DNA of 64,000 nucleotides, from assembly GCA_004431415.1 (NCBI GenBank), contig QPMI01000474.1, forward strand, positions 62,001-126,000, in the 5' to 3' direction. Both the position numbers and the translations under genes were made by a program. Under the pieces are notes generated by a model that was not told where the DNA came from, searched no databases, and saw nothing but the letters and a program-made list of their open reading frames with translations. Positions 6,272 through 64,000 of this stretch are shown here, piece after piece. The stretch comes from Cyanophora paradoxa CCMP329 (taxonomy: Eukaryota; Plantae; Glaucophyta). Numbering within the stretch: the first letter of the stretch is position 1; every line of letters begins with the position of its first letter.

Positions 6272-6538
6272 CCGTAAAACACTTAAGTAATGCGCCGGTA
6301 AGTAATGCGTTTTTGGACCCGGACCCCCAGTACGGTTAATTATGCGCCCCCGAATTAATGCGTTTTGAAGCCTTCTGGCTGCATGAGGGGGGTACATACC
6401 GCAGTTTTCTTAGCCTAGTAGCTCCGGCTTAGCGCTCGGATATTAATGCGCCCCCAAATTAATGCGTTTTGCCAGCGGAAAACGCATTATTTCGGGACCG
6501 CATTACTTAAGTGCACGCATTACTTAAGTGTTTTACGG
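6272..6538. mobile_element. MITE, Tc1/mariner-pogo type (family A)
   Basis: TIR CCGTAAAACACTTAAGTAATGCG...CGCATTACTTAAGTGTTTTACGG, TA on both sides, internal TAATGCG/CGCATTA repeats, no ORF. Confidence 0.9.
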
Positions 6539-19325: not shown

Positions 19326-19759
19326 TATAATTAAGCTGCTTAACGCGTACGGCTGCTACGGGCCTACGGCAACGTCGGCAAGTTGCCAAGTTGGCAACTT
19401 CGTCGGCAAGTTGGCAACTTCGTCGGCAAGTTGTCGTCGGCAACTTACTATTATGATCCAATCACTGATTACATACTCGACAGTTCGCGAATGAATTCGA
19501 AATACTGGTATTCTCGTGCTCACGTAAGGGTCGGTCCTTCGAATTCGACGTCAAGCGCAAGGAGCCCCCCCTCCCCCCAAGCGCCCCGGCGGCCCCACCC
19601 CCGCCCCCGCCCCTACTCTGACACGGCGTACTCCCCCCGGGCCCAGGATGGCCCAGTGGGCGCCACGCCGTACGCGTCGCCCTCGTCCAGGCTGGCTGCC
19701 TACCCCACTTCCTCCACTGACCTCCATGCGCGCGAGGTACCGATAGCTCTCACGGCGGG

Positions 19760-20447
19760 CCCGGCGGAGACATTCACACACGTCTTCTTCTGCCCGGGGC
19801 CCCATGCAGTGGCGCACCGCGCGGAGACCGCCCGTGAGCTGAATCGCTTCCTGCGGCGCGCCCACCACGAGACTCACGGACCCCAACTCAAGAACATTGA
19901 TCCCACGATAGCGCTCACCTCCGGCCTTGTGCCCACCTATCTGCGCGTAGCCGACGATGACGCCGAAGCGCGCAGCTCCGACGACCGCCCGACCACGTAC
20001 TCGCGGCTCTGGGTCCTCCAAGGTGTCGCCCCGCAGTCGCTCGAGCGGGACTTGATCCGCGCCCTCGACCTCGACCCGCGCCGCGCGCCCCGCACGGCCA
20101 AGCGCGTACGCCAGATGCTGATCGAACGCGCGCGTCGGCTCTGGGCCAGCCGGTGCGAGATCAACGCAGCATGGGAACGAGACTGTCGCATCTCTCAAAC
20201 CTCTAAGCGTCGCCCGCGCCCGCCCCGCACAGGAGCTAGAGCTAAAGAACGCGCCCGCGGACCCCGTGTCCCGATAGAGCTCTGTCCTGCCTGCGACGGG
20301 CCCATACACCTTCATAACGACCTTCGCGCAGCTCAGAACGCGGACTGCCCGCCGGAATACCGAGGATGGAAGGCAGCGCTTCAAGCCCAAGAACTCTACG
20401 ACAGCACCAAGGTCCGCCCCTGGAGCCTGCCCCCCCCGGACGATTAA
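19760..20447 (+). pseudogene. C-terminal remnant of a LINE-like ORF2 (zf-RVT-type tail)
   Basis: ETFTHVFFCP resembles the ETxxHxFxC end of the CCHC finger, followed by RRLWASRC; intronless; no RT core visible upstream; likely 3' UTR extends to ~21500. Confidence 0.6.
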
Positions 20448-43668: not shown

Positions 43669-44769
43669 GCCTGCAACTGTACATGTACATGTGGCAATTG
43701 CAACTGTAGGCTAGTAGCTATAGGGCAATTGCCAGGCTTGCTCGCCGTAAGCGTCGACTCGGCGTCGGCTGAAGCCTTGACACTACTAGGCTAACAACCC
43801 GCGCTGCTGGGCCGGGCCGCGGCCGCTGAACTCAGCGACCTGAAGTCGTCGACGTCAGCAATCTGCGCAGGCTGCTATGACGCGTACGAGACTTGCAGCG
43901 CATTCATGTGCTGCACGCGCAGCAGCAGCTGGTCATGATCATATGCATGGCCTCAACATTAATCTGCTAGGCCTAGGCATTCTCCTTGTGGTCGTGCACG
44001 CGGCATTGCATACACATATGCATGCATGTGGAGCAGAGGCGCTTGTACATCAAGCTTCCGAATCCTCGAAGACCTCGCCCTCGAGCTCGACACGTGCGTG
44101 CGATCCGTTAACATTCATGATCAACCGGTTGCTCGCACACCACGACCTGATCATGAATGCGTATACGCGTGATCATGAGCAGGTCGTCTCGCAAGCGTTA
44201 TTGCAGATCCTGCCGTGCAAACTTGCAGTGCGTCACGCGTACGGCGCGCAAATGCATATACCTCGAGCTCCCATGGCCACTGCGCCCAGTCCAAGCCTTT
44301 TATCTAATATCTGTATCTAATCTTAATAAGCGTACGTACGTATACAATTGCAATTAAAAAGGGGCCTACTAGCTATAGGCTAGCTATAGGTCGGCACACC
44401 CGCCGCCAGTTCTATACTATGAAAGCTACCTAAGAGGATTGCTATAGCTATAGCTGTAAAGCTATAGCTAGATATAACTAGCGCTCATTAACTCCTTTAA
44501 CCTCTCGGGGGCGAGCCCTCTCATCTCGGCGCCGCCGCCGCCCCGCATGCGCAGCCGGCCCCAGCTACCATAAATATTAATCTTCATAAGCTTTCCGCTC
44601 ATGATCATGATCATGAGCATGTCTCCAACTCTGGTGCAGGCGCGCACTTCGGGGGTGGCGAGAGCTACATCACCCTGCCCTCTTTGCACCTTGGCAATCC
44701 GATGTCCTTTGAGTTCTGGTGCGCGTTTCCCTGCTCAGTTCTGGAAACGCGCTTGTGAAGCCCAACGGA

Positions 44770-46118
44770 CTGAAATTGGGATCAGGATCAAGCTCGGTCA
44801 GCGGCAGCAGGACTGGACGCGCGTCTTCGACTTCTCGAACGGCGGGTCATATCGCGGGAATGTGGTGCGTCGGCTTTTGAACAGTCCCTGCAGCTGGCGA
44901 CGTCGATGGCGATACTGATTTCGCTGCCCGCCTCCCCTCTGGCCGATCGGCGCAGCTCATTGTTCTCCGCGCGGTGAGCGCGCAGCTAGCACGCATGCGC
45001 AGCTCCGCAGCTGCCGCCGTGGCTGCAGCATCTCCCGTCCGCAAGCGCCTGATCATGATCATGATGCACGTCGCTGACAGGACGCCGTCATCTCGAATGC
45101 TCCGAGCCCTGACCACCTCTTCCTGATGGTTATGGATCGAGCTCGAACAAATGACCCAGTACCCCCGGTTTGCACGTTACTCTTTCTGTGGACCGACTGC
45201 GGCGCCGGCCGCGGGCCGGGTCGGGCGGGGCCCATATTAAAAGCACCCTTAAGCCTGTACATGTGCACGAGATATAGCCGCTGAGCTCTTGAACGGTCCC
45301 ATGCCACTGATCGCCATCGGCCCGACTCCGCGTCCACAGGAATCACCGGAGGAGGACCAGGTCCATCTGTACTCGGCGTCCAGCACAGACACTGGTCAGA
45401 TCGAGGTACGCACGTGCACTTGCAAGAAGCGCGCTTGCCTGCAAGCGTGCAATTTCAATTGGATCACCGCTGCGTGCACGCAGGTAGGGCGGTGGTACCA
45501 CGCGGTGACTGTGCTTGGGGCGGCCGGTGACCTGCACTTCTACCTGACGGACAGCGTGACGGGCACCCACGTCCACATCACCGACGGGACGCGCACCTCC
45601 GGCCCGCAGGGGCAGAACGTGACCATTCTGCCGAGCGGGCCACGCAGCGATAATTACATCGGCAGAGTTGCAACACCGGTGCGCGCTTAAGTTTGCAAGA
45701 GACGCGCACTTCCGATGCTCGCGATCGTGGATTGCTTCGAGCGCTAGCAATCTAGCTCGGTTTAAAGTATAGGTTCGATCAGAATGCCGGCGCCCGACTG
45801 AGCGCAAACATACGTGCAGGACCCCAAGCTGTACACGCCGACGAACATGCAGCTGTCCGGTGCGTCCGCCTGTAAACATCTCATTTAAACAAATTTAGAG
45901 CCTTTGAGCTATATTCTCAAGTTCGCCTGCACGTTCGACATGAGGACGCGCCTGGGGTCGCAACCGCAAATGCATCTATACATGCACATGCTGACTTCGA
46001 AACCGCGGCCGGCCGCGGGCGCGTGCAGGCTTTCGGGTGTGGCCGGCGGCGCTTTCGGCGAGCGAGGTGCAGACGCTGGCGGCGGGTGGAGACATTGGGC
46101 GGCAGCCGCTCGTGCACC
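44770..46118 (+). pseudogene. LamG/concanavalin-A-like domain host gene, interrupted by the viral insertion (5' end not resolved)
   Basis: WTRVFDFSNG, VGRWYHAVTV, RSDNYIGR, FRVWPAALSASEVQTL; the frame runs straight into AT-rich DNA after QPLVHL. Confidence 0.75.
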
Positions 46119-46405
46119 TCACACATAGTAAAATGCGGAGTTTTAACCCTCGGCTTATCTTAATTGATTTTGTTGATATATCTCGTATATTCTATTTCAA
46201 TCAATCGATAATCTGTGTATATCTTATCGAATATTCATTTATTTCGATTATTTTGTATTCTTTTCGATATTTTATCGTAAATTTCTCTTATTTTCCGATT
46301 AGTCTTACTGAGTCTATCGATAATCTGTATATATTTCCGAATAATATAACTGAATCTCAATTAGATCTTGCCTCTGGTTAAAACTCCGCATTTTACTATG
46401 TGTGA
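46119..46405. repeat. Terminal 30-bp perfect inverted repeat enclosing a T-rich spacer
   Basis: TCACACATAGTAAAATGCGGAGTTTTAACC (46119-46148) and its reverse complement at 46376-46405. Confidence 0.95.
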
Positions 46406-46655
46406 TTGGTCTAAAAGGTAATTGATTTAATCGATATTATATTCATGTACTTTCTCGATTAAATTTAATTAAATTTAATTCATTTAATCGGAAATATATC
46501 GCTAAACTCGATTAAGATCCATAAAAGATTCATTTGTTAAATAAAACAAATCGATCTCTTATTGAATTCAATCGTAATTATACATGAAATTGATATGTTA
46601 TTATCATGTTTTAATGATTCTAAGGGGGGACCCTTAGGATTTTTGAAATAATTGG

Positions 46656-47040
46656 GTGTGACAGGTGTGACAGGTCTATCCCAAACTTTTGATAGTTCAT
46701 TTTTATGTTATAGAAAAGTTTGGGATAGACCTGTCACACCTGTCACACAAACCATATTCAGTAAGGATCTCTTTTAATGTTAAAATTTCAGTGTTAGTTG
46801 GTGTAGTTGATTCACAAAATGCATCCTGTCACACCTGTCACACAAACCATATTCAGTAAGGATCTCTTTTATAATGAAAAACTCAGTAACAATAAGTAAG
46901 AAGTTTATCTATGTAATTCTACTTGAATAAACAAATGAAATAATCGAGTGTGACAGGTGTGACAGGTCCATCCCAAACTTTTGAGAGTTCATTTTTATGC
47001 TATAGAAAAGTTTGGGATAGACCTGTCACACCTGTCACAC
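46656..47040. repeat. Two 35-bp-stem hairpins built from 10-bp GTGTGACAG(G) iterons (copied at ~49582-49965)
   Basis: GTGTGACAGGTGTGACAGGTCTATCCCAAACTTTT at 46656-46690 pairs with 46714-46748; second hairpin 46948-47040; a half copy lies between them. Confidence 0.95.
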
Positions 47041-47593
47041 AAACCATATTCAGTAAGGACCTCATATATTGGTAAAATCTCAGTGTTAGTTGGTGTAGTT
47101 GATTCAAAAAATGCATTTATACTCTGATTCATTGTTATTTCCTGTGAAATTTGAGTCAACTCAACCCACTTAGTCAACCCTTGCATTGAATTCGTAACAA
47201 AATCCATATACTTTTACTACTTTTACGATTAATATGAGTCAACCTTGAGTCCACTTAAATATAAATATAATATAATAGGGGGAATCAAGGGGAGATGCTT
47301 ATAAACATATGAGTTATTGAGCCTATGATACTTACATAGTCACGCTGGTCTCGGTAAGAGGATTCCGAATCTGTTTTTATCTTTGTGAGATGATGAGTTG
47401 GTGAAGAGATACATGCGTTTTAGTGTTTTGTATCGGATTTCATGTTATGACGTCATAATGACGATGCATATGTATATGATATATATGATATACCACGTGA
47501 CTCGGGAGATCATGACGATCACGGCGATGCAGTCAGTGTGATGTTATGATGCATCATGTAATGACTCATTCAATGACTCATTAAATGACGCAA

Positions 47594-47720
47594 TTTGGTG
47601 TATCCCCGTTTTCATGAGCCATTAAATAACTTATTTTATGATGAAATTTGGTGTATCCCTGTTTTCATGAGCCATTAAATGACTCATTTTATGATGAAAT
47701 TTGGTGTATCCCTGTTTTTA
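47594..47720 (+). repeat. 53-bp tandem repeat, about 2.4 copies (copied at ~50519)
   Basis: TTTGGTGTATCCC starts at 47594, 47647 and 47700. Confidence 0.9.
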
Positions 47721-47959
47721 TGATTTATTACATCACTAATGATGAGGTATTTATCACAGTCGAAGTTTCGCCGAAGTTTCGGTATTTCGCTGTCGGCATC
47801 TTCAAACGCTTGTATCTCATCACCAGATCATCGAAACGCAACGTTCTGCATAGCGCTGTGAAGCGCTTGATAAGATCTACAAGACTATGTGTATATCATG
47901 TGCATATATGTATATCAGTCATACATATATTTGGAAAAAACGAGTTTTTGCCTAGCAAA

Positions 47960-49055
47960 CTAGCTAGTTTTGGTCCTTTCTCTTAGTGTTCTCTGAGGTT
48001 TAGGGGCTGTATATGACTCCTTAGTAGTCTGAAAGTCATTATACCATCTCTGGCTATTAACCTCAGAAAGTTTCTGTGTCCCTGCTATAGTGAGCTTTTT
48101 GAGTTCCCTGTTAACTTTCCCAGCCTTCTCCTTTCTAGCCTCTATCAAAGGCTTATCTGGACTTCATTAGCAGCTTCTATGCCTTCTCTCCTTATAGCAG
48201 CATCAGCCCTGGCTTCCTCTTTAGCTTGCTCCAAGGCATCCACTGTAGGGGTTTCTAGATATTCAACTGCATTCACAGGCAACAGCTCATGGAAAGCAAA
48301 CCTGTTTTCTATGATCTCACCAGTGGGACTCCTTAGCTTAAACTTAAAGCCTTCCCTACTATCAACAGTGTAAACCATCCTAGACCAATTGTTACCCTGT
48401 TTAGCAAAGGGGTTCTTCTCAACTTTCACTCTAACAAACATGCCAGGCTGCATGGTATCAAGGTAAGCTATTGATTTCTTGAATCTTTCATCTTCTAATC
48501 CCACTATATACCTATAATGCTCCTCTGTAGTTTCGCCTGGCTTCATCTTAGTAGCTGAGTGAACTGTATTATTGTAATTATACTCAATATCACCTAACAC
48601 ATCAAAGAATCTAGCTGTGTTATTAGCTATGCAATAGTTTGTGATCAGTCTCTTAATCTGCTTGTTAAAGGCTTCAATTCGACCTTGGCTTCTGTGGTCT
48701 GCAGTTCCACTCACTTGGTGTTCTATGTATTTACTAGATAAATACTCCTGGAATATTCGATTTTGGAACTCACTCCCAGCATCTGATTGAACCTTTACTA
48801 TGGGTCTTGCTACTCTCATCTCAAGCTGTTTAAATGCAGCCAATGTAGTGAGAGCTGATTTATCCCTTATAGGTATGATATACCCAGTTCTCAGTGTAGA
48901 TTCCATTGCAGTCATAAAGGTATCATAGCCATTGTTTTGTTTCTTATAAGCTGGGAAAAAGAGCAAATCAATCACATAGGTATCAAGGGGTTGCCTAATT
49001 GGGACCATGGGATCTCTCTTCCTAGATATAGCAGGTGCATTGATCTGAACAACTT
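47960..49055 (-). pseudogene. 5'-truncated duplicate of the rve integrase
   Basis: Matches the 50885-51980 copy apart from single-base indels; cut at the duplication junction; DDE core intact from MVPIRQ. Confidence 0.9.
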
Positions 49056-49061
49056 AAAACT

Positions 49062-51980
49062 CGGAGTTTTAACCCTCGGCTTATCTTAATTGATTTTGTT
49101 GATATATCTCGTATATTCTATTTCAATCAATCGATAATCTGTGTATATCTTATCGAATATTCATTTATTTCGATTATTTTGTATTCTTTTCGATATTTTA
49201 TCGTAAATTTCTCTTATTTTCCGATTAGTCTTACTGAGTCTATCGATAATCTGTATATATTTCCGAATAATATAACTGAATCTCAATTAGATCTTGCCTC
49301 TGGTTAAAACTCCGCATTTTACTATGTGTGATTGGTCTAAAAGGTAATTGATTTAATCGATATTATATTCATGTACTTTCTCGATTAAATTTAATTAAAT
49401 TTAATTCATTTAATCGGAAATATATCGCTAAACTCGATTAAGATCCATAAAAGATTCATTTGTTAAATAAAACAAATCGATCTCTTATTGAATTCAATCG
49501 TAATTATACATGAAATTGATATGTTATTATCATGTTTTAATGATTCTAAGGGGGGACCCTTAGGATTTTTGAAATAATTGGGTGTGACAGGTGTGACAGG
49601 TCTATCCCAAACTTTTGATAGTTCATTTTATGTTATAGAAAAGTTTGGGATAGACCTGTCACACCTGTCACACAAACCATATTCAGTAAGGATCTCTTTT
49701 AATGTTAAAATTTCAGTGTTAGTTGGTGTAGTTGATTCACAAAATGCATCCTGTCACACCTGTCACACAAACCATATTCAGTAAGGATCTCTTTTATAAT
49801 GAAAAACTCAGTAACAATAAGTAAGAAGTTTATCTATGTAATTCTACTTGAATAAACAAATGAAATAATCGAGTGTGACAGGTGTGACAGGTCCATCCCA
49901 AACTTTTGAGAGTTCATTTTTATGCTATAGAAAAGTTTGGGATAGACCTGTCACACCTGTCACACAAACCATATTCAGTAAGGACCTCATATATTGGTAA
50001 AATCTCAGTGTTAGTTGGTGTAGTTGATTCAAAAAATGCATTTATACTCTGATTCATTGTTATTTCCTGTGAAATTTGAGTCAACTCAACCCACTTAGTC
50101 AACCCTTGCATTGAATTCGTAACAAAATCCATATACTTTTACTACTTTTACGATTAATATGAGTCAACCTTGAGTCCACTTAAATATAAATATAATATAA
50201 TAGGGGGAATCAAGGGGAGATGCTTATAAACATATGAGTTATTGAGCCTATGATACTTACATAGTCACGCTGGTCTCGGTAAGAGGATTCCGAATCTGTT
50301 TTTATCTTTGTGAGATGATGAGTTGGTGAAGAGATACATGCGTTTTAGTGTTTTGTATCGGATTTCATGTTATGACGTCATAATGACGATGCATATGTAT
50401 ATGATATATATGATATACCACGTGACTCGGGAGATCATGACGATCACGGCGATGCAGTCAGTGTGATGTTATGATGCATCATGTAATGACTCATTCAATG
50501 ACTCATTAAATGACGCAATTTGGTGTATCCCCGTTTTCATGAGCCATTAAATAACTTATTTTATGATGAAATTTGGTGTATCCCTGTTTTCATGAGCCAT
50601 TAAATGACTCATTTTATGATGAAATTTGGTGTATCCCTGTTTTTATGATTTATTACATCACTAATGATGAGGTATTTATCACAGTCGAAGTTTCGCCGAA
50701 GTTTCGGTATTTCGCTGTCGGCATCTTCAAACGCTTGTATCTCATCACCAGATCATCGAAACGCAACGTTCTGCATAGCGCTGTGAAGCGCTTGATAAGA
50801 TCTACAAGACTATGTGTATATCATGTGCATATATGTATATCAGTCATACATATATTTGGAAAAAACGAGTTTTTGCCTAGCAAACTAGCTAGTTTTGGTC
50901 CTTTCTCTTAGTGTTCTCTGAGGTTTAGGGGCTGTATATGACTCCTTAGTAGTCTGAAAGTCATTATACCATCTCTGGCTATTAACCTCAGAAAGTTTCT
51001 GTGTCCCTGCTATAGTGAGCTTTTTGAGTTCCCTGTTAACTTTCCCAGCCTTCTCCTTTCTAGCCTCTATCAAAGGCTTATCTGGGACTTCATTAGCAGC
51101 TTCTATGCCTTCTCTCCTTATAGCAGCATCAGCCCTGGCTTCCTCTTTAGCTTGCTCCAAGGCATCCACTGTAGGGGTTTCTAGATATTCAACTGCATTC
51201 ACAGGCAACAGCTCATGGAAAGCAAACCTGTTTTCTATGATCTCACCAGTGGGACTCCTTAGCTTAAACTTAAAGCCTTCCCTACTATCAACAGTGTAAA
51301 CCATCCTAGACCAATTGTTACCCTGTTTAGCAAAGGGTTCTTCTCAACTTTCACTCTAACAAACATGCCAGGCTGCATGGTATCAAGGTAAGCTATTGAT
51401 TTCTTGAATCTTTCATCTTCTAATCCCACTATATACCTATAATGCTCCTCTGTAGTTTCGCCTGGCTTCATCTTAGTAGCTGAGTGAACTGTATTATTGT
51501 AATTATACTCAATATCACCTAACACATCAAAGAATCTAGCTGTGTTATTAGCTATGCAATAGTTTGTGATCAGTCTCTTAATCTGCTTGTTAAAGGCTTC
51601 AATTCGACCTTGGCTTCTGTGGTCTGCAGTTCCACTCACTTGGTGTTCTATGTATTTACTAGATAAATACTCCTGGAATATTCGATTTTGGAACTCACTC
51701 CCAGCATCTGATTGAACCTTTACTATGGGTCTTGCTACTCTCATCTCAAGCTGTTTAAATGCAGCCAATGTAGTGAGAGCTGATTTATCCCTTATAGGTA
51801 TGATATACCCAGTTCTCAGTGTAGATTCCATTGCAGTCATAAAGGTATCATAGCCATTGTTTTGTTTCTTATAAGCTGGGAAAAAGAGCAAATCAATCAC
51901 ATAGGTATCAAGGGGTTGCCTAATTGGGACCATGGGATCTCTCTTCCTAGATATAGCAGGTGCATTGATCTGAACAACTT
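49062..51980 (+). repeat. Near-identical direct repeat of 46136-49055 (~2.92 kb)
   Basis: Identical ORFs offset by 2925 bp (46995/49920, 47648/50573). Confidence 0.97.
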
Positions 51981-52268
51981 CTTGTTTTTTATAGAACTCT
52001 TGCAACTGCTTATAGGATTCATCAGGTAACTCAGCCCTCATAGCTTGAAGCCCTTTGTAACCAGTTCTCACATCATAGAATCTCTTGGCAATCTTGCTGG
52101 TTTCTTTCACTGCAATAGCAACTGGGATCTCTACTGGGACAAGCTCTTTCATCTCTGACTTTTTTACAATTCGAGATTCTCCCTTTTCCTCCTTGGAACT
52201 GTGATAGGCAGTAGGTTACCTTGTAGTTGCTCAGTGGTTCTCCTAACTATTCTTCCAGTTGCTGGCAT
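50885..52268 (-). CDS. Retroviral-like (rve) integrase, Polinton/virophage type; frameshifted in this assembly
   Basis: Catalytic triad YVIDLL / QSDAGSEF / GRIEAFNKQIK; YNNTVHSATKMKP; C-terminal VRVK..WSRMVYTV..HELLPV. Confidence 0.95.
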
Positions 52269-52271
52269 CTC

Positions 52272-55200
52272 TTAATTAAAAGGAACAGAATTAATACCAT
52301 CTGGTAAGATGTATCTCTTTGCATCAAAGCAGTTTAGGGCAACCCTTCTACTCACAGTGTCTATTATTGTGTGATCTGCCCTTCTTTTCTGCTTTGCAGT
52401 CACAGTCTTGCTGATACCTGCAAATAAACACTGTTTTAAATCATTAAATTGGAGTTCCTCAGTTGAAGTCCCAGAGAGCTTACTCCTCTCAATCTCAGCA
52501 GTTCTGAAACTGTAAACTTTAGCTCTCAGACCCACATACTCCAATATAGCAGAGCCAGGCATTTCATTTTTGTATTTACCTGGGGTCATTCTGGAATCAC
52601 CTCCAAGGTCTAATGCATAGGATATATTCTCTATATCTTTTTGTAGGGTCTTAGATTCGATATATAGACAAAAGGAGTCAGTATCATGGAATAGTAACTT
52701 TGCTTTTGTCCATTGGGACCTTACAGTATCATAGAAGAACTTGTAGTTATGCAGTTTGGCTGCATCCAGAACATAAGCCCCAATAGCAACTGGCTTATCT
52801 AGCTTCACATGCTTTGTGTAAAACTCAAAGGCAACTGCTTTTTCGTTTATGGACTTGTTGATTTCACCAATGGGGAGGCTGCATATTTCATAAACAGTTT
52901 CTCACTGTTTGCAATCTTAACCACAGATCTACCTCTGCAAGATTCAATGCATTTCCCATAGATTGAGTTATTCATGAGTTTATAGAAATCAGCCTCGAAT
53001 TTATTCACTGCTTTCCTTCTCATCTCAGTATTCAGCTCAATGTAGGGTTTCATTACAGGAGCCACAGTAAATGATAGGACCCTGTGAACCTTCTTTAGTT
53101 TCACCCCTTTGTCCAACAGATACTGTAGAAGAGGCTCAGAAATCACATAGTTGGTCACAGAACCAAAGGTTGCAGTTAGCTTAGGGGTCTTATCAAGCTC
53201 TTCTCCTGAGAGATCTAATAGGCTCTTTTGATATTGTGATAATTCTGCATATTCTACTATTTTCTTGTTAATAATTAGGGGGAAATCACTGTGGTCTAGA
53301 TATAGCCTAATTGGGTAATCCAGATCAACTTCCAGGAAACTGGATCTGTTATCTTGTGGGTTGAATTCGGTCTCCCATCTAAAATCACCAACTGGGATTG
53401 GCTGACTCAAACAGTAGCCATACAAGTTGTTAGCATCAAACAGCATTATATGGGAGTTCTCACCATCAGCCTCAGCATACCTACAAGGCATTGTTGCAAA
53501 GCCACCCTGATTCCCCTCTCAACAAATTCGTATTGCTCTACATCACTTATAAGCTCTATTTTTGCCTTGGTGGTCCTAAGCATAGCATCCCAAGATAACC
53601 CAGGTGCAGATACATAATGAACTGGGTCCAATCCATATACTGAGTGTGAAAGCCTTCTGAAAGCCTGGAATTTGCTCATTAACTCATCTACATCAGCAGC
53701 CCCAAAGTCCATAAAATTACTTGCATCAATGAACTTGTAAAGACCCCATTGCAATGAAAGGTATTGATCAAAGTTTTTCGAAAGGATTTCGATTCGCTTT
53801 TTATCACCCATGCCTGCTATTTTTCTGAAAATGAATGTCCCACAGTCATCCATTTGGTCAACAACCACTGCTACTTTTGTTTGCTTTGAGATTCTCCTAT
53901 GGAGATTGCAGTTTCTGCATGCAGGTGCAATGTAATTACCTGTGTGGTGATCATGATCCCTGCATTTGAAGTTTTCCTTGGTGAACCTCTCACTGCAAAG
54001 GTAACAGTGTTTGGTAGCTCTGTAAATAGCCTTTTGCTCATCTGTGAGTTCATTCATGGAATATTGGTGAACAGGAAATCGATTAGCTCTCTTGCTTTGG
54101 ACTCCAAGCATTCAAACAGACCTCCCATTGGATCCTGACCCTCAAATCGAAACTCCTGAACATCTGCCCCAGTGACTATTCTAATGTTGACTGCTGAGAC
54201 TTCCCTCTTGGATTTCGATGCATCAATGGGGATGCTTCTATGTTCAATCTTGCAGTAAACCACAACAGGAAGCCAGACAGTTTTCCTGAGGTTTTTCAGT
54301 CCAAACTCTATTGTGGTGTCAGGCTTAGGGTGATTCCCTTTGAGAGTCTCCAATCAATGCATCTGTTTGAGTCCACATGAGCAGTGAGTTTAGCCTCAGA
54401 CCTGAATCGAGATAAGCATGTATCACAGTAGTGTAACTTTTGATCCTTGGTTTTATCAAGGGCAACTCTGAGAAGTCTTGAAAGGGACATGATAGTAATA
54501 TAGTGACCATTCCCTTCATCATCATGAATGAGCATTAGATTAATCTTTTGCTTTCTGCCTGGGTTGCTGGATTGATGTAGGGATATATAACATCTCCATC
54601 CATTCCAAATATGTTTATGCTGATGCCTGCATTTTGAGATTCGAATTTATCAATGATTTCAGCATCACAAGGAACAGGGAATGGATATTGTCGAAATTGA
54701 GAGCCAAAGGATTGTATGTGGTTGGTGAGTATTTCCATTTGCGATATTGTGTAAGCTCACTTCTCTTGTGGAATTTACATCTTTCCTATGGATCCATGCC
54801 AAAATGGCATTTTCAAAGCAAGAATCATCAATATTTCGAATATTCACTGTGGCTCTCTTGGCTGCAATTGATTCTGGTGTTTTAACATAGCAGCCACCAG
54901 TTGGGCATAACTCATAATAGCAACTCTTAGCATTTCGATTCTCTCCAATCGATAGCTATCAACAACATTCATCTGTTCCTGACACATTTGGGCTGCTTTA
55001 TTCAGCTCAGTTCGAATATTTCTCGATTTGGTTAATACAAAATAATCGCTGTAAATGTATTTCGATATCCAAACCTGTGGATTGCTGACTTTTACGAACT
55101 TGCAGATAAACGACAAGCGAACTTTGATTGCCCTGAATTGATCCAGACTATCTCTTAAACGTTTGGTAGAGAGGTTGCAATTCTATCTAAATATTCAATC

Positions 55201-55505
55201 ACATCTACCACAACTTCCCTTCTGGCTCTGTATGTGAGCCAGCGATATAATTCATTCATGGCTGTTCCATCTTCTGCCTCTGGTTCTATTTGCCTCAGGC
55301 GATCGAGTTCATCAAGAGTCTCAACTTTGTCATAGAGGTTATTGGCTTTTCTGGTTAATTTTGCTAAAGTGGGTCTGCCCTTGAAATAAATCCGATTTCC
55401 CGGTCATATTCAGCCTCTGTGATTTCATGGCTGCATACAGTGTTCCCAGTAATCCCATAAGTTCCCATTTCTTCTCTCTAATGAGTCTGTTGCTAATTCG
55501 GGCAT
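52272..55505 (-). CDS. Protein-primed family B DNA polymerase (Polinton type) split over several frameshifted ORFs
   Basis: DANNLYG, KLMNNSIYGK, FHDTDS, GKYKNE, VGLRAKVYS, YGLDPVHYVSAPGLSWDAML; endonuclease-VII-like CYLC..RDHDHHTG..ACRNCN; C2H2 finger; vOTU-like NIDDSCF..GHY. Confidence 0.93.
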
Positions 55506-55574
55506 AGTTCCTAACTTGTTCCTACTAAAAGGGGAGGTTTTAAATGGGGAATTCTGAACACAAAATTTGATGAA

Positions 55575-55609
55575 AACTACTTAAAGAAATATCTTCTATA
55601 TATATAAAA
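55575..55609 (+). promoter_or_regulatory. Putative viral promoter motif ACTTAAAGA-n-TCTATATATA (also 56441-56468, 56891-56925, partial 59398-59407)
   Basis: Near-identical AACTACTTAAAGAAAwATCTTCTATATATATAAAAGG precedes the ATGs at 55615 and 56944; variants precede 56483 and 59436. Confidence 0.75.
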
Positions 55610-55614
55610 GGACA

Positions 55615-56405
55615 ATGGCAGAGAAGAAATCGTATTGCCTGGAAAAGCTCAAAGCGGCTTTAATGTTGCTTTGTGGATCTGATAACTTCAATGATTATGT
55701 TGCTCTTGGAAGTAACAGGAAACCGCTCCCTCTTTGGGCAAAGCTTGCAAAATATGGATTAAGTGACTATGACCTGCCTCCAGAGTCTGAGCATTGCGCC
55801 TGTGATCATCCAATTAAAGAGCAATGCTATATTCTGCATGTTAATAAAAAGATTGTGGTCATTGTTGGGAATTGCTGCATTTTACGATTTATTCCGAAGG
55901 GTGCCAGAGGTCAAGATATATGTGAAAGATGTGGAGATCGCATAAAAACCGAAAGGATAATTTCTGTAATAAGTGCAGAATCGCTTTAAAGCAAGAAGAA
56001 CTGGAAGAAAAAGAGAACTTGAAAAACAAGAGGAAGCTCGAAAGAGGCAGCTTGAATTAGAAGAAAGAGAGCGAAGAGAGAGAGAATTAGAACAAGAAAG
56101 AGCAAGGAATAAACATGCAGTTAATCTTTTCCTGATTTGGTGCAACCAATTTATTCCGAAAATGGATAATCTTCGCAGAGATGATATAGAGAGGTTCAGA
56201 GAGGGCAGATCTGCATTGATTGAAATGTATGCAGAACTCAGTACAACAAATACATTGGTTGCTGGGTTTCAGGTGCCTTATCTTAAAAAAGATATCGCAA
56301 AAGATTAGATTGCAGATGGAATAAGGACAAGAAAACATGGGAGACCTTGGAAATCGAACCATTTGTAGCATTGCTAGGTAAGCATTTCAAACTTATGTAT
56401 ATTGA
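55615..56405 (+). CDS. Cys-rich zinc-binding viral protein with coiled coil and C-terminal DUF5710-like motif (frameshifted)
   Basis: CACDHPIKEQCYI..IVGNCCI, CERCG..FCNKC, E/R-rich coil, VPYLKKDIAK/RLDCRWNKDKKTW after a one-base shift; end approximate. Confidence 0.6.
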
Positions 56406-56482
56406 GCGATTTGGACAAAGAGGTTAGAGAACAAAAAATGATTTAAAGAATTCTCTATATATATTAAGAGAGACAGAGGAAA

Positions 56483-56725
56483 ATGCCACTCAGTGAAGCC
56501 CAGAAGAGAGCTATGAAGAGATACCAGCAAACTGAAAAAGGTAAGGCTCAAATCAAAAAGTTTAACGAAAAAATAGCCACACAGCTTAGAGATCTATATC
56601 AAACCGATGATACCTATAGAGCAATGAAAATAGCAAGTTCATGTCAGCGAAAGTATGCAGCCAATGCAGTCTGCTTTGTCAAGTATTTGTATGATGTCCC
56701 TTACTCAAATAGAGGAGAAAATTGA
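56483..56725 (+). CDS. Small basic hypothetical viral protein
   Basis: Intact 80-aa ORF MPLSEAQKRAMKRY.. downstream of the shared promoter motif. Confidence 0.65.
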   Translation: MPLSEAQKRAMKRYQQTEKGKAQIKKFNEKIATQLRDLYQTDDTYRAMKIASSCQRKYAANAVCFVKYLYDVPYSNRGEN

Positions 56726-56943
56726 AACATGTCTAAATTATTTTTCCCAGCATATTACTAGGCTGGGGATATGCTGTTTATTCGCTGAAATACCCATTCA
56801 TCCTTTTGTATCTAAACCACTCGATATATCATGTGGATAAATTCGTAGGGATACTTTCTCGATTTCCAACAAAAATGATTGGGGACCCAAAACTACTTAA
56901 AGAAAAATCTTCTATATATATAAAAGGGACCCGATCGCTGAAA

Positions 56944-59215
56944 ATGAACGCCAAACAGACTAAATCGCTCAAATCGCTCGCTAACTGGCTCAGATCTGAT
57001 GAGGAACTGTCCAAAAACATGATTATCCCAGTGAAACCTGACAGCAAAGACCCTGTTTTCAAGCATAAGGAGGTGCATGGTCCTGGGAAAAGTATGAGGA
57101 AGCGCTGGCAACTAATCATATGTATCTTGGGGCATTCTGCTCTCAGACAACATGATGGTTATTGACTTGATGATGAGGAGGACTTTGAGAAATTCCGGGA
57201 TATGTTTCCTGATGACTTTGATGCCAATCAGCCATGGCAAAAACTAAAAAAGCTATCATGTCTACTTTAAACGACCTGAGAGTTCAATAAACTCAAAATT
57301 ACCGATAAGCTCCTGGCTTTAAAGGCTTGAGAAGGTTGACCTGAAAACAATCACTGGAACTGGAACTTCTGACTGATCAATGTGTGTCCCAGTGTGAACA
57401 AGGCTTGGTAATCTCCCCATGGGATGATACCTGTGATTTCAATGAGCCTACTGATGACTTCAAAAAGTGGATAATAGATAACTACATCTATAAGAGTGAG
57501 TATACTGCTAATGCTACCTCACATGATGAACTGGAAAACAATATTATCAAAGAGCTGGTGGATATGGATTTATGCATCCCAATATAATCTCTAAAACTGA
57601 ACTTGGCTTTAACTTGATGCTGCTAACAAGGGACTCAATTGCCCATGCTGCAATGGTTCACATGAATCGAATAACTGGTATGTATGAAAGCTAAAGGAGA
57701 TGATAACAAATACATTGTGTCAAGCTACAGTGGAAATTGCAAAAAACGATTCATCTGCATTGGAATGCAATCTGATATCTTCAATCTTATAGATAAATCC
57801 GCTGTTCTGGTGGCGCTCATTATGATGTGAGTTTAGTATGCAAAGAGGTTCTTAAACATACTGGAGATACTCCAAAAAGTCATGGTTCAAACTCAATACT
57901 GATACTGGATTTGGAGCATGATGACACAAACCTAAAGATTTACCTAGATATAACCGTCTTGTTGTCCCCAATACCTTGGAAGGCTGTGCATTATAGTCAA
58001 AGAGCTTTAAAGGATGAGGAAACAAAGCAGCTTTCGAAGAAAGATCCAAAACATTGATGACCATTGCCAAAAATCTTAAACAATCAGGATTTCGCAAATC
58101 CCTTCTGACTGACTTGTCCCACTGCTGAATGATGATGAATCTTGAGAAATTGACACAGTTCCATATGTATTGGATCGAAAATGTGTATTTGATCTGACCA
58201 CTATGACTTTCAGAAGGTAAACTGGAAGATATGGTGAGCAAGACTGTGGTTATGACTATACTGAAAATGTAGACCCAAGAAAATAGAGCATCTCAATCAG
58301 ATTTATAAAGAGATTGTGGATGATCCAGCAGAGCGAAAGTATCTTCTGGCATCCATTGCAATTGCCCTTAGTGGATCAACTAAATCCAGAAGTTCTATAT
58401 GTGACTGGTGCTGGTGCTAATGGTAAATCACTGTTCAGGAATACTGCAAACAGATATCTGTCGCTATTACAGCCTCTCGAAATATCCTATTGGACTAAGC
58501 CTAAAAAGAACTCATCAGAGCTACTCCTGAACTTGCCAAACTCCTTGGAAAGCGACTTGTATTCAGTAATGAGGCTGAAGATGTGATAAACTGCAGATCT
58601 CCAAATTAAGGAGGTCACAGGTGGAAATGAAATGACTGTGAAGCCTTGTTCAAAGACCAGTTATCCTTACCCCAATGTTTCAGGTCTACATTACAACTAA
58701 TGACAATTTGACTATAAATAAACCAGACTTTGCAATTCAAAGAAGACTTTCCTATCAGAGATTCAATAATATATTCAAGAGAAGCCAGAAGCTGGTCAAA
58801 AGAAGCTGACCCAACTCTGTTCACACTTCTACACAATGATGATGAGTATAAGATGGCTCACATGAAGATATTACTGGATATGTGGAAACAAAGAGGTTGA
58901 AGAGATCTTAAGAAGTCCCCCTCAATCGATTATTGACAGGGAATTAACTTTATAGCTGAAAATGATAGATTGGTGAATGGCTTCGAGATAATTTCGAGGT
59001 TACACATAATGCTAACGACTTTGTTTCCAGTGATATCATTACAAATCATACAAAGTGTTGATGATAAAGTTGAATGTGTATCTGTTATGAAAAGAGTAAG
59101 GAGATCTTCAATGTTAAATCAAAAGAAAACGAGTTATGGTATTCTTGCCAGAGGATATATTGGATTCGAAAGATAACAAGGTTCAGAAGACAATGAAGAT
59201 GATGCCGAATATTAA
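56944..59215 (+). CDS. Primase(-polymerase) fused to a D5-like SF3 helicase (heavily frameshifted)
   Basis: Walker A VTGAGANGKS; Walker B region GKRLVFSNE; KEVTGG; N-terminal prim-pol-like VIDLDD and a YHVYF-like motif read across frameshifts. Confidence 0.8.
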
Positions 59216-59261
59216 AGAAAACGATTAATGATGAGATTTACATATATTTTTATAGCTTACT

Positions 59262-59370
59262 GAAAATGGTTTGTGTGACAGGTGTGACAGTCCATCCAAG
59301 AAAGCCTGGTGAAAAGTTGATTTTCAAAATCGATGGATAGACCTGTCACACCTGTCACACCTGTCACACC
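59262..59370. repeat. Internal copy of the GTGTGACAG iteron inverted repeat, right after the helicase stop
   Basis: GTGTGACAGGTGTGACAG...CTGTCACACCTGTCACACCTGTCACACC; its flank matches the reverse complement of the left-end flank. Confidence 0.9.
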
Positions 59371-59664
59371 TATCGAAAAGACCAAAATTTGACAAGAATA
59401 CTTAAAGCTTACTTGATGTGTATAGTGAAGACAAAATGCAAAACTCTTGATGAGATGACCATGAATGAGTTAATAAATGCATAAAGCATGGAGATAGGGC
59501 ATATATCGAAATGTCACAGAGATTGATAGGTTACAATATGTATGCAGCAAAACCAAAGAGAATAGATCAGTAACATTCACATAACTGTTTCAGTGTCTGA
59601 GAATGCAAACAAAAAACAACAAAGCATATTTACAAAGTTATCTGTGACTTGCAATTGATTGCAA

Positions 59665-60972
59665 GTATAAAGCCAATTCCTTGTATATATTTTATAGCTG
59701 CCTCAGTGCATACTGAGACCGCTTTTGCTCAATTATCTATAGACCTGGGGTCCATTGCTACTATCAGTAGGCAAATAATATTTAATCGGTCTCCCTCTGG
59801 GTCTCTGCTCCTCTTTTTGGCTTTTTGCGATAATAGGATGCCAGGGCTTGCTTTTTATACTCTCTATATGCTGGGTCCTCTATATCGTTTCTGCATTGCC
59901 AGAATGTGTCTTATAGACCCCTCAGTAACAGGTTCATCACTGGTAAACTCGATTAAACTAATAGTGTCCTCCATTTATATTCCAGAGAAAACGTTTTCTG
60001 CTGCAGAGAACTTCTCCTTGGATACTCCTGTTGCTCATATGTATACTCTGTGGGTCTGCTGGCATTGACTCCACAGAAACTGTTGATCTCCTTCTCTCTC
60101 TTGCCTCAGATACATTATCCTCAGTATCTGACATCTCAAACTCTATTGTTGTGTCACAGCATCCACTGTGGCAATTGCTTACCACATGCAGACTGAGCAT
60201 CTCAATAAACTTTCGTATTATATCCATGTCTCTAATAAAACAGAGAAATTAAAGCCAAACTCGTCTTTTATATACTGTGGGAGCTACTCCCTTTCTACTT
60301 CAGTTTTAGTGGCACCAGGTTCAATGGTTCCCTTTGGGTCTTTGTTTTCATTTCATCTACTGCTTGCTCATCGATTTGGTTCTCTTTCTTAGCAATAAAC
60401 TGTTTATCTGGGACACCAGTAATGCCCATTTTATAAACTTCTTTCGAAGCATCTCCTTTAGCTTGGCTCTCTCTTTCTTCTCAGTAACATACTGCTCCAA
60501 AGCACTGGATTTGGCTTCCAGATCTTTGAGTTTAGCAGTCATCTCATCCCATTGAGCCTTGGGAATTCGATGAATATTTTGAGTGGGAGCAGTCTTATAT
60601 GTGACTTCACCAGCCATAGACTGAATTACCTTGTCTGATTCCTTACTAAGACCTTCACCTTTGCGAGCCAGTGAAGATCTTGCAAGCCTAAACCTTTATC
60701 ATCAGCAGCACCAATAATTCGCCTGGCACCCTCAGCAACAGCTTCATTTTGAGCTTCTGGTGAGATGTTGAGTTGGTCACTGGTTGAAGCCTGTGGGGCT
60801 TTGTCATCGACTGATTCCTCATAGGCAGCATTAAGAGGGTCTTCTTGCTGTGAGGGCTTCACCTCATTCATACCATTGAATTTCATTGGTTCAGTATTAA
60901 TGGATCCATTGTTTCCACCACCTGAATAGCCAACAGCCCCAGCTGGATCCCTATCTTTCGTTTGGGAGGCAT
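59665..60972 (-). CDS. Cluster of about three small hypothetical viral genes (starts ~60972, 60617, 60227), frameshifted
   Basis: Closely packed ORFs with plausible ATGs (MPPKRKD.., MAGEVTYK.., MDIIRKF..SGCCD); no family recognised. Confidence 0.5.
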
Positions 60973-61034
60973 TGTATCTTTATTAGAATGAGAGATAATT
61001 TTATAAACCGCGTTTATATCGCATCAATTTATTG

Positions 61035-61738
61035 CTATGGACTTGGCTTTTCACTTCTTTAGGGGCTTCCTCTTTCTCTGGAGGTTTCAGTTCATCTTCT
61101 TTCTTTTTTGGCTTTCTGTGGAAGCGAGGAAATGGGAAATCTTTCACAAGCTCAGCTTTATCTACAATAGTATTTAACTGAGTTGCAGAGGACCAAATAT
61201 ATACTGATAGGAGTGAACATACTCTTCAAACATCTTGTAAAATCCTCTTTATTTCGCATTATATTGTATTCTTCCTCTATGGCTTCAAGTTCTTTGCGAT
61301 TTGCAGCACTTAGAAACATGCATATCAGAATTAACTCGAATAGTCGAAGAGACTTTCCTTAGCTTTTTGTGATGCAGATAATGGATATTTTTCGAATGAT
61401 CCAATATTTTATCCTGTAATCTACTATCTCATTATCGATTAAATCATCTAAAAACACACATTGGTTAACAGGTTCCACCTTTTCTATTTTCTCTTGCCTC
61501 TCATCTAGCAATTTAGCAATGTAAGGGGCATCCCTTTCCCAGTTGCAGTGTTGCACTTTATCCCAGAAATGATTGAAGCTGGTTCCACTCACAACTAATA
61601 CAACATCAATCTTTTTGGCATCATGCACTGCTTCAACCAATACTTTACAGCTTCTGATTTACCAGTTGCTGATTTCCAATTGTGACTCGAAAGGGGGTCT
61701 ATCATTTCACCAGCCACAAATTCATCCAAATCGTTCAT
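61035..61738 (-). CDS. A32/FtsK-HerA-type genome packaging ATPase (frameshifted)
   Basis: Walker A (G)KSATGKS, VLVVSGT, Walker B VFLDDL, arginine-finger region STIRVNSD. Confidence 0.82.
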
Positions 61739-61791
61739 TGGTATCTCTCTATAAAGAGACAGATAAAAATAATGCAGGAGACTGAAATGGT

Positions 61792-62680
61792 TTACAGGTT
61801 AGATAGGAAATCGTTTAATGCACCCTCAATATCAGTTTCGGTGAATGGGATTCTTAGGAGTTTGATATTATTAGCTTCACAGTACCGATTTTTAATTCCA
61901 TCACGAATTTGGGTATCTTCAAAGGCCTTCTGACCTCCAAACTGTTCCACAGGTTTGAAATGTTGTATACCATCATATTCAATTGCAATTTTGAGAGATG
62001 GAATATAAATATCGAATGGGAGAACTCTTTTATGCTTGCAATCAGGAAATCTGTGGATATTGAGAAGTCTAAACCAATTTCTTTTAGGGCTGCTTGAACT
62101 TTCGTCTCACCAATAGACGATCTACATGACAGACAGCCATACCCATTGAGAAAATCACTTGGTGTCTTTTTGAATTCAAGATCACACTTTTTACAGATAA
62201 TGGTAACTTTTGTTCTTGCATTAACATACTCACTTTAGATAAATCGTAGTTATCCCATAGAGTTTAAGCCTCTCTGTAATTTCTCAATCCCCATTTGCAA
62301 CTTATCTTTGATGCGATCCATTTTACATTTTGCATGCCCATCCATGCATGTGTTTGTGTGGCTTTTGATTGAAATACCTTGACATTTCTTGCAGAAAATT
62401 TTATAGGGTCATCTCCTTAATATAAACAGATTCGAATAGTAAAGATCTTTATGTTTCGCTTCGCTCTTTGACAAACTCATGGTTAACCTATGCATTTTCC
62501 TTTTTAATATTCCACAAGGGACAGCCACATTTGTTTATGTGACTATGGGCAGCTTGAATAAACTCAGTGTTGCATTTGCATATATAATTTTTCTTCATTC
62601 CCCATGAAATTAACTTTCGAATAATCATAATTTAGCCATGCCTGAATAGCTTGGCTAGAAAGACTTAGAGTATAAGACAT
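61792..62680 (-). CDS. DUF723-like zinc-ribbon repeats + Vsr/DUF559-like PD-(D/E)xK endonuclease (frameshifted)
   Basis: YDYSKV, NARTKVTIICKKC, GYGC repeats; SIGETKV; LPFDIYIPSLKIAIEYDGIQHF; RDGIKNRYCEANNIKLLRIPF. Confidence 0.82.
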
Positions 62681-62712
62681 TTACTTTTGTAAATGATTTC
62701 AAAAATAAATAA

Positions 62713-64000
62713 TCATTTTTCTTTAAATGCCTTACGAAATGGTAACAATCTATAAATTAATTCTGCGTAAACCATCTTTGTCACAATAATAAAGCTATGC
62801 ATGAGAGCGCGAACATTAACATCGATTACCTTATCTGAAGGCATGTAGAGGGTGAGGAATGAAGAGGAGGAATTTGTTAAATCAACATAACCAGACTGGG
62901 CAATATTTCGAATTGCCTTTTCTCCATCAAGGCAGAAGGATCCTGAAAGGACATAGCGATCAGCAACCTTATCCATGTTAGAGCATTTGAAGGCATCAGC
63001 AATTAGCTCAGCACCTTTGAGTAGGGAAATTGGCTCAGTGGCAAAAAGTCGCTGACCATTTATTTCAGTTGTGAATGTTATCTTTGGAGTTGGCATAGGT
63101 CTTAAGAACACTGTGGGAGCCATTGGATTTGTCAACAGTTGCATTATCACGAACTGAAACAAGCAGAGCATATACAAGACCTGAGATTTGAGAGAGGTTA
63201 ATTCGATTGGGTTGGGCATTGCCCTTGGCAGGGAAAGCACTAGCATCTACAAATCCAATATCAAGGGAGGGAATAGCCATGCCAGTAGTCTTAACTTTTT
63301 CAATTACAGTAGCGAAAAGCTCATCAGAAACATTAATAGCATGCATGTAAAGGCGAGGAGAAGTAATAGAAATACAGGGTTGTTGCACCAAGAGTAAAGT
63401 TGTGATGTTTTGACCAACATTTGCAGAACAGTTTCAGCAGGGGCAGTTCCAAGACCATCATCTTTGAATAATCTACATCAGCTGCTGCAACAGTAAGACC
63501 ACGACCACCATAGGAAGTTTCAACATAACCCTTTCCAGCATCCTTAAACCAAACAGTAACAACCATTTCACCAGATAAAGCACCAAGGGGAAGGTAGTGA
63601 TTTAGCCAAGGCACTGGATTTCAACAAAAATGAGCCACCAAGTCGGTTGGTTCCATGAGCAGGGATGCCATGAACCATGCCCATTGATCGTTTCTTTTTA
63701 GCTAGTTGATCCTCCGAATAATAGACCAGGGGGAAATGAGCAAGGAAATCAGATGGATGTAGGTGTAAGATCCATAGGTAATTTCAAGTCGCTGAACTAA
63801 AGCACCAACTGGGCGAGTGTATCCATTGCGAACTAGGTCAGTATCACCAGCAAAAGTGATGGCTGGAAGGTCGAAAGCAAGTTCGAGTTTTCCACAGAAA
63901 TTGTAGCGAGGTAGCTTGAAGGAAATGCGATTTCCAACATTATTCTCAAAAGTATTGCTGGGATTCACAACAACTAGAACTGGCTTAGACTTGGATTCGA
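62713..64000 (-). CDS. Probable double-jelly-roll major capsid protein (PLV type); 5' end outside the window, frameshifted
   Basis: Beta-rich ORF pieces ISFKLPRY..LELAFDLP, LVQRLEITYG, YLPLGAL, INLSQISG, SFCLD..GYVDLT; over 420 codons; next to the packaging ATPase. Fold is inferred. Confidence 0.65.

Follow-up and report, generated by a model that had tools for sequence, protein, structure and literature searches.

Candidate iteron origins and a decayed polymerase exonuclease in an endogenous polinton-like virus of Cyanophora paradoxa

Introduction

Several described groups of integrating viruses carry more than one replication enzyme. According to the accessible parts of the respective papers, low-GC EMALE virophages encode an rve integrase, a primase/helicase and a protein-primed DNA polymerase (pPolB) (PMC8547959), and in mavirus and Tlr1-like polinton-like viruses (PLVs) loss of the polymerase exonuclease was accompanied by gain of a helicase (Krupovic 2024, PMC11161782). 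Excerpts of two recent preprints describe Halocafeteria virophages with pPolB, a D5 primase-helicase and terminal palindromes (10.64898/2026.07.28.741278), and multi-replicase polisuviruses, including a contig with the QPMI01 prefix of the Cyanophora assembly, in which repeats bracket the replication modules (10.64898/2026.10.13.758929). How PLVs swap or combine such enzymes is an open question, and knowledge of it consists mostly of gene lists. Here we analyze a stretch of 64,000 nucleotides (nt) from the glaucophyte Cyanophora paradoxa CCMP329 (contig QPMI01000474.1, positions 62,001 to 126,000; hereafter the window, whose own numbering is used throughout). From position 46119 to its end the window consists of an AT-rich endogenous PLV. 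GC content ranges from 54 to 85% across 1-46000 and from 31 to 43% across 46001-64000; the drop occurs near 46100, and values remain low as far as position 64000. The element measures at least 15 kb without counting an internal duplication, PLVs being 15-40 kb long, and its right end and target-site duplication lie beyond 64000.

Results

Iteron hairpins and a primase-helicase gene

The 9-mer GTGTGACAG occurs 25 times against an expectation of 0.15, and every occurrence lies within the element. The copies are arranged as opposed pairs that flank an AT-rich core. Two and a half of the resulting hairpins lie in the left region, where they are doubled by the duplication, and another follows the primase-helicase gene (Table 1). 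The inverted cassettes at 46655-46765 and 59256-59361 thereby flank the integrase, pPolB and primase-helicase genes.

A survey of IMG/VR for doubled GTGTGACAG yielded 34 viral loci, which fall into 19 independent groups; 25 nearby open reading frames (ORFs) were scanned with Pfam. At 13 of the 34 loci, representing nine of the 19 groups (eight without a DUF3987 gene), the doubled motif lies at most 350 nt from the 3' end of a primase/helicase gene. Among these 13 loci, one encodes a Prim-Pol-D5_N-SF3 fusion that resembles the present gene. We estimate the chance of this association between motif and gene at a few percent. Because GTGTGACAG follows primase/helicase genes in eight to nine of the 19 groups, the iteron hairpin at 59273-59369, behind the primase-helicase gene, is likely a replication origin. 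Other viral contigs (L093, L096, L099, L100, L114, L097 and L115) carry opposed GTGTGACAG repeats with no primase/helicase gene end nearby, and these repeats may be stand-alone origins.

The gene that precedes the hairpin was recognized by frameshift-tolerant profile scans of both strands of the window. An 18-member TIGR01613 profile of SF3 helicases scores 78.9 at +58791, compared with a maximum of 20.3 in eight shuffles and the reversed element. For a 44-member PF09250 profile of Prim-Pol primases, the best match in the window ends at +57298 with a score of 26.1. A Prim-Pol read-through, in which X stands at breaks chosen by hand, scores 21.9 bits, compared with a maximum of 4.5 in 1000 shuffles. 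A DxD-type motif and a His motif, which we take to be those of the primase, align in this read-through. Primase and helicase likely form one fused gene of about 745 codons, whose predicted product combines an N-terminal AEP domain, with modest support, and an SF3 helicase, as in AEP-SF3 (Prim-Pol/D5) replicases. Searches with the helicase piece returned no homologues and no loci, and tblastn against phages gave no match. A four-sequence SF3 profile was set aside as too weak, its score of 21.5 lying within noise; its top match, at host position 16631, was not reproduced by the 18-member profile.

The primase-helicase gene shares an upstream element with its neighbours. A 39-nt repeat with a TATATATA core is found at 55573-55611, upstream of the first plus-strand ORF, and at 56889-56927, upstream of the primase-helicase gene (97% identity), and a weaker copy at 56441-56470 precedes the third of the small ORFs. 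The repeat is a candidate shared promoter.

A protein-primed polymerase with a decayed exonuclease

The predicted pPolB comprises a presumed terminal-protein region, a vOTU-like region, a zinc insert of the EndoVII type, a decayed exonuclease and polymerase motifs A, B and C. Pfam recognizes DNA_pol_B_2 (E 6e-11) and Endonuclease_7 (E 4e-6), and six of the nine frame pieces are collinear with a profile of four relatives, covering profile positions 227-1231. Motifs A, B and C remain intact. The Cys and His of the vOTU-like domain, which has been described for pPolB in the accessible part of PMC11161782, align to the profile.

The exonuclease differs from this picture of conservation. ExoII has degenerated, some 98 profile positions (623-722) are lacking, and no alignment was obtained for the piece from the ExoI region. 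We gathered 102 related pPolB loci, 36 of which were measurable for ExoII and for the span from EndoVII to motif A. ExoII is kept in all 36, and the span, 174 amino acids here, is 269-328 amino acids in relatives. A second span measures 99 amino acids here compared with 194-238 in 42 of 43 relatives, the remaining one giving a spurious negative value. A short-read contig across 53756-54078 shows 0 substitutions. The element thus agrees with the published rule linking loss of the exonuclease to gain of a helicase, on a different polymerase background. On one metagenome contig (L177:429-8615), a pPolB with an intact exonuclease occurs with an SF3 helicase gene that is seemingly split by an opposite-strand ORF of 1225 amino acids. 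Of the element's features, the decayed exonuclease and the iteron hairpins are the more unusual ones, and both were overlooked in a first-pass annotation made from the DNA sequence alone.

Integrase, packaging and capsid genes

That annotation had described an AT-rich block with an rve integrase, pPolB, a Prim-Pol/SF3 helicase, a packaging ATPase and a capsid gene, and profile or sequence comparison bears out all five modules. The integrase matches Pfam rve at E 7e-5, under the family cut-off, and aligns with the rve proteins of four out of four IMG/VR relatives at 27-31% identity (best E 2e-15 to 3e-33). For the ATPase, a three-member A32 profile peaks at 33.1 at -61188 compared with a maximum of 21.3 in controls; Pfam and PHROGs assigned no ATPase family to its pieces, and a search with an ATPase piece returned no loci. 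Between ATPase and capsid gene lies a homing-type endonuclease. In three runs, short-read contigs connect the sequences on either side of it (joints 61777-62742 and 61778-62797), which suggests that other copies do without the endonuclease and that it is optional.

The capsid gene was previously noted as a PLV-like ORF at 62713-64000, and this assignment is upheld by several comparisons. Its N-terminal piece matches Atlas Capsid_N clusters at 0.97 in 25 of 30 matches, a recognition value below the tool's comfort level. Across the gene, identity to the intact protein P0002, a C. paradoxa protein in EukProt, is 49-65%, and P0002 itself matches Capsid_N/Capsid_NCLDV clusters of the Atlas at 0.98. 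In the accessible supplement of Bellas 2023, P0002 is row 106 of Table S2, with an HHpred value of 98.5% to an iridovirus major capsid protein (MCP) (PMC10120064). A closer paralogue in the same source, gene_64235, shares by eye an identical stretch of 24 residues with the window's capsid piece (PMC10120064).

Other searches with capsid sequences returned little. Among 1.84 billion representatives there were 103 matches; two full-stretch matches were kept, and 101 multi-stretch matches to long proteins were dropped as noise. Sequence searches of the PDB with capsid queries gave nothing significant, Pfam and PHROGs hold no family for P0002 or P0025, and AlphaFold2 on the alignment of these two sequences produced no usable fold (pLDDT 35). 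The C-terminal capsid piece found no homologues, a search with P0002 returned P0002 alone, and the viral and metagenome contigs searched contained no capsid relatives with genomic context. Within the window, family scans found no maturation protease of the Ulp1 type, and no penton (minor capsid protein) was recognized; the element extends past 64000. Nor were genes for Mriya48, HUH or VLTF3, expected in Nucleocytoviricota-related PLVs of the Zora, Zephyr and Alpensee groups, recognized in the window, in scans that used profiles other than the published ones.

Boundaries and duplication

A short-read contig of 1483 nt from the host flank shows zero differences from the window and terminates at 46120, which places the element boundary at about 46119-46121. 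The hairpin at 46119-46405 is likely the start of a left terminal repeat. The insertion apparently sits at the end of a host exon (window 44500-46118). By eye, this exon was LamG-like, a candidate that was dropped as Pfam found nothing.

A tandem duplication of 2926 nt, absent from the first-pass annotation, covers 46129-49054 and 49055-51980, and may be either genuine or a product of assembly. Hairpin-driven rearrangement would fit it better than a slip of the assembler because of a fold-back at the junction. This fold-back (49048-49066) is short and perfect, and two of its bases are unlike copy 1. A degenerate tandem repeat with a 53-nt period occupies 47561-47740, and again 50486-50665, in the interval that separates the iteron cassettes from the integrase stop. 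The ratio of observed to expected CpG is 0.11-0.52 in viral genes (within 51262-64000), compared with 1.01 in the terminal region and 1.11 in host DNA. The viral genes are thus CpG-depleted, and the likely host methylates CpG; the part of PMC12344493 at hand describes it as methylating and silencing virus-derived genes.

Frameshifts and copy state

Twenty listed short-read runs contain part of the stretch, and 18 of them hold about 45% of its words; no RNA run is listed among them, which says nothing about expression. Contigs from these reads differ from the window mostly by gaps, with 0 substitutions and 11 gaps at 57913-58215 and 0 and 10, respectively, at 58967-59290. All 12 listed indels (of 298) are bases missing from the window, and those at 52850, 53504 and 58641 fall at frame breaks. 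Because the contigs differ mainly by gaps, the frameshifts look like unpolished long-read errors. False consensus in repeated viral regions has been described (PMC10120064, accessible text). The frameshifts thus probably stem from assembly, with the genes intact in the family. Short-read contigs have greater depth in the element than in the flank; depth was not used to rank genes or count copies.

Table 1. Features of the element in window coordinates.
Feature	Position	Strand	Evidence or remark
Left terminal hairpin, 287 nt	46119..46405		49-nt arms (30 nt perfect), 189-nt AT-rich spacer; fold z -10.4
Tandem duplication, copy 1, 2926 nt (terminal region and 3' part of integrase)	46129..49054		copy 2 at 49055-51980; 99.8% identity, 2 mismatches, 3 gaps
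Subterminal GTGTGACAG iteron cassettes	46655..47040		hairpins 46656-46748 and 46948-47040, half 46826-46843; repeated at 49581-49965
rve integrase duplicate, 5'-truncated	48145..49053	-	Pfam rve E 7e-5
rve (DDE) integrase, one frameshift near 51340	50885..52152	-	Pfam rve and relatives
pPolB, about 9 frame pieces, 5' end approximate	52272..55470	-	Pfam and four-sequence profile
Three small ORFs (Cys-rich; coiled-coil; basic)	55618..56725	+	family scans: nothing convincing
Prim-Pol (AEP) primase then D5/P4-type SF3 helicase, heavily frameshifted	56944..59176	+	frameshift-tolerant profile scans
Iteron hairpin, 97 nt past primase-helicase stop	59273..59369		fold z -5.6; inverted relative to left cassettes, 75% identity
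Several short frameshifted ORFs	59400..61000	-	family scans: nothing convincing
A32-like packaging ATPase, frameshifted	61001..61738	-	Walker A split by break, Walker B CVFLDD
Zinc-finger homing-type endonuclease	61792..62690	-	PHROG 559 E 2e-30; between ATPase and capsid gene
Capsid gene (double-jelly-roll)	62716..64000	-	Atlas and P0002; 5' end past 64000

Elsewhere in the window, an AT-rich unit recurring about every 61 nt interrupts an array of TTAGC-type 5-mers at 11570-11815. At 19221-19302 lies a 37-nt hairpin without mismatches, which has a 71-nt inverted partner at 6444-6514, and the ORF at 19344-20447 beside this hairpin may belong to a retroelement.

Discussion

A proposed two-part replication system

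The gene set tips us slightly towards a replication system in which polymerase and primase-helicase cooperate, much as is thought for mavirus. In such a system the rve integrase would insert the linear genome. After excision, the primase-helicase would load at the GTGTGACAG hairpins and unwind the DNA, and could also prime, while pPolB would use its terminal-protein domain to prime at the ends and would then extend, presumably in an error-prone manner. The ATPase would then package the genomes into capsids. A more specific proposal, doubtful on balance, is that the element represents an unnamed, glaucophyte-specific lineage with a stable two-part replisome. The lineage would be an independent case of exonuclease loss with helicase gain, in which the exonuclease remnant is still present and GTGTGACAG hairpins in the terminal region serve an active primase-helicase as origins. 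If true, a eukaryotic PLV would have an internal origin of defined sequence, in an alga that grows axenically. The primase-helicase that the element encodes can serve to assay the candidate origin, and the compensation rule from the literature can be tested, in a separate lineage, on a polymerase without proofreading motifs next to a helicase. Because the likely host carries hundreds of related capsid genes, co-occurrence of these features across copies can be counted.

Several points weigh against cooperation of the two enzymes. In 10 to 11 of the 19 motif groups there is no primase/helicase gene end close by, and the association between motif and gene has no matched control because a scan with a shuffled motif returned 0 matches. 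For the Prim-Pol domain, the unbiased score of 26.1 is modestly above the 15.5-21.8 of 10 shuffles, the stronger score depends on the hand-chosen frame path, and a single primase-helicase ORF is presumed from order and length. Among the short-read contigs listed, none was observed to cross the gap of some 100 residues near 53700, so the exonuclease gap could be specific to this copy or to the assembly. More generally, the present copy may be truly broken, since the short reads pool many copies. Finally, the pairing of pPolB with a primase-helicase is rare and may be transient, given that SF3 helicase is found in one and Prim-Pol in none of 39 related loci.

This last point leads to a different account of the two enzymes, namely a replacement in progress. 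A newly acquired primase-helicase with its own origin would be displacing a decaying pPolB, or would be a passenger in some copies. The gene and its downstream origin could form a self-contained cassette, the exonuclease has decayed, the pairing is rare among relatives, and two preprints, in the portions accessible, treat dual replicases as transient states of turnover (10.64898/2026.10.13.758929, 10.64898/2026.07.28.741278). Against displacement, pPolB retains motifs A, B and C and the Cys and His of its vOTU-like domain, and copies of the origin motif have also reached the left subterminal region. A recent arrival is further countered by the 39-nt upstream repeat that the primase-helicase gene shares with a neighbouring ORF, and by its GC content and CpG depletion, which equal those of the rest of the element. 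We regard replacement as unlikely, though a serious contender.

The inverted cassettes at 46655-46765 and 59256-59361, which bracket integrase, pPolB and primase-helicase, could also mark a composite. A transpoviron-like unit of replication and integration (46119-59369) would then have been joined to a capsid module or to an adjacent insertion. The tandem duplication is evidence of local rearrangement, and bracketing and tandem elements have been described, a QPMI01 contig among them (10.64898/2026.10.13.758929, in part). However, no second terminal hairpin is present near 59400, base composition does not change across the border, and 59380-59682, beside the cassette, is covered by a short-read contig; we consider a composite distinctly improbable. 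A copy that is a dead relic, or a chimera mis-assembled from related copies, would account for the dozens of frameshifts, the 2.9-kb duplication and the many variant letters in the reads, and false consensus is described for such regions (PMC10120064, accessible text). Yet the differences are nearly pure gaps, with 0 substitutions over stretches of 300 nt, and intact capsid paralogues exist. This explanation, which bears on the copy and not on the gene set of the family, seems very improbable to us.

Comparison with known systems

The first-pass annotation had proposed an undescribed lineage, a claim that no longer holds for the capsid family, which is already catalogued in C. paradoxa as P0002 (Bellas 2023, Table S2; PMC10120064). 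In the available portion of that work, Table S4 lists 366 C. paradoxa capsid hits in MCP clusters 21 and 29, both marked 'new' (PMC10120064). In the rows listed, and by column count, these clusters bear no group name and no Mavpol label and fall outside the virophage columns (PMC10120064). The Cyanophora viruses of Bellas 2023 thus share the capsid family of the window's gene and differ in being catalogued by capsid only, the accessible main text leaving the species unmentioned (PMC10120064). Our literature searches, which left subscription papers mostly uncovered, found no description of gene content for polinton or capsid elements of Cyanophora or glaucophytes, and no report on iteron origins in PLVs. 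Nor does the accessible main text of a 2026 PLV framework mention Cyanophora (10.64898/2026.06.19.733378). The exonuclease decay and the iteron hairpins were not found in print in these searches and are the additions made here.

The earlier suggestion of a novel pairing of an EndoVII-type pPolB with a primase-helicase stands insofar as both genes are present, but an EndoVII-type pPolB next to rve is a common arrangement, and this pPolB is followed by rve in four out of four of the first relatives examined. Similarly, the combination of pPolB, primase/helicase and rve, taken then to be new, is reported in excerpts on low-GC EMALEs, Halocafeteria virophages and polisuviruses, while the capsid cluster seemingly lacks a name. 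The gene combination is therefore of a known style, in a capsid cluster that is catalogued but apparently unnamed. Since the basic combination was already known, the surprise it holds is limited.

Among these systems, mavirus and the low-GC EMALEs share rve, pPolB and primase/helicase with the element (PMC8547959, in part), and likewise form AT-rich insertions in a GC-rich host. Mavirus, in the accessible part of PMC11161782, also places a pPolB with a remnant exonuclease beside a separate SF3 helicase; these two features and an rve integrase, the mavirus-like set, are all found here. The element differs from virophages in its capsid, which is Capsid_N/NCLDV-like with no virophage family among the Atlas matches listed, and in its pPolB, which keeps the EndoVII-type insert and is nearest to polymerases whose exonuclease is complete. 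In view of its different capsid type, we do not consider the element a virophage.

The pair of pPolB and rve integrase expected of Maverick-Polintons is likewise present. Maverick-Polintons and aquatic PLVs (IMG/VR L001-L004 and L147-L167) resemble the element in the palm of pPolB (31-38% identity), in the order pPolB then rve (four out of four first relatives) and in the A32 ATPase. They differ in keeping ExoII (36 of 36 measurable). Among 39 related loci of at least 8 kb, integrase occurs in 21, ATPase in 21, SF3 helicase in one, and Prim-Pol and the present capsid type in none; these loci are incomplete, and bacterial members were used to build the profiles for primase and helicase.

Polisuviruses and Halocafeteria virophages come close in another respect. 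They combine pPolB with an AEP or D5 primase-helicase and have bracketing repeats and terminal palindromes. In the accessible text, however, their dual replicases are read as transient or tandem, and neither an origin function of the repeats nor a link to the exonuclease appears.

Parallels to the arrangement of gene and hairpin come from prokaryotic replicons. As described in the available parts of the papers, pRN1 has as its origin a stem-loop located 54 bp past its AEP-SF3 gene (PMC4234260), and PICI origins consist of two iteron sets flanking an AT-rich region (PMC6092414). The pRN1 primase starts at GTG, and mutation of this GTG did not abolish replication (PMC4234260). In pRN1 and in PICI/P4-type replicons, as in the present element, an AEP-SF3 or primase gene is closely trailed by a stem-loop or by opposed iteron sets. 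Those replicons are prokaryotic and circular and use a host polymerase, whereas the cassette described here belongs to a eukaryotic virus that itself encodes a pPolB, and it recurs near the end of the genome.

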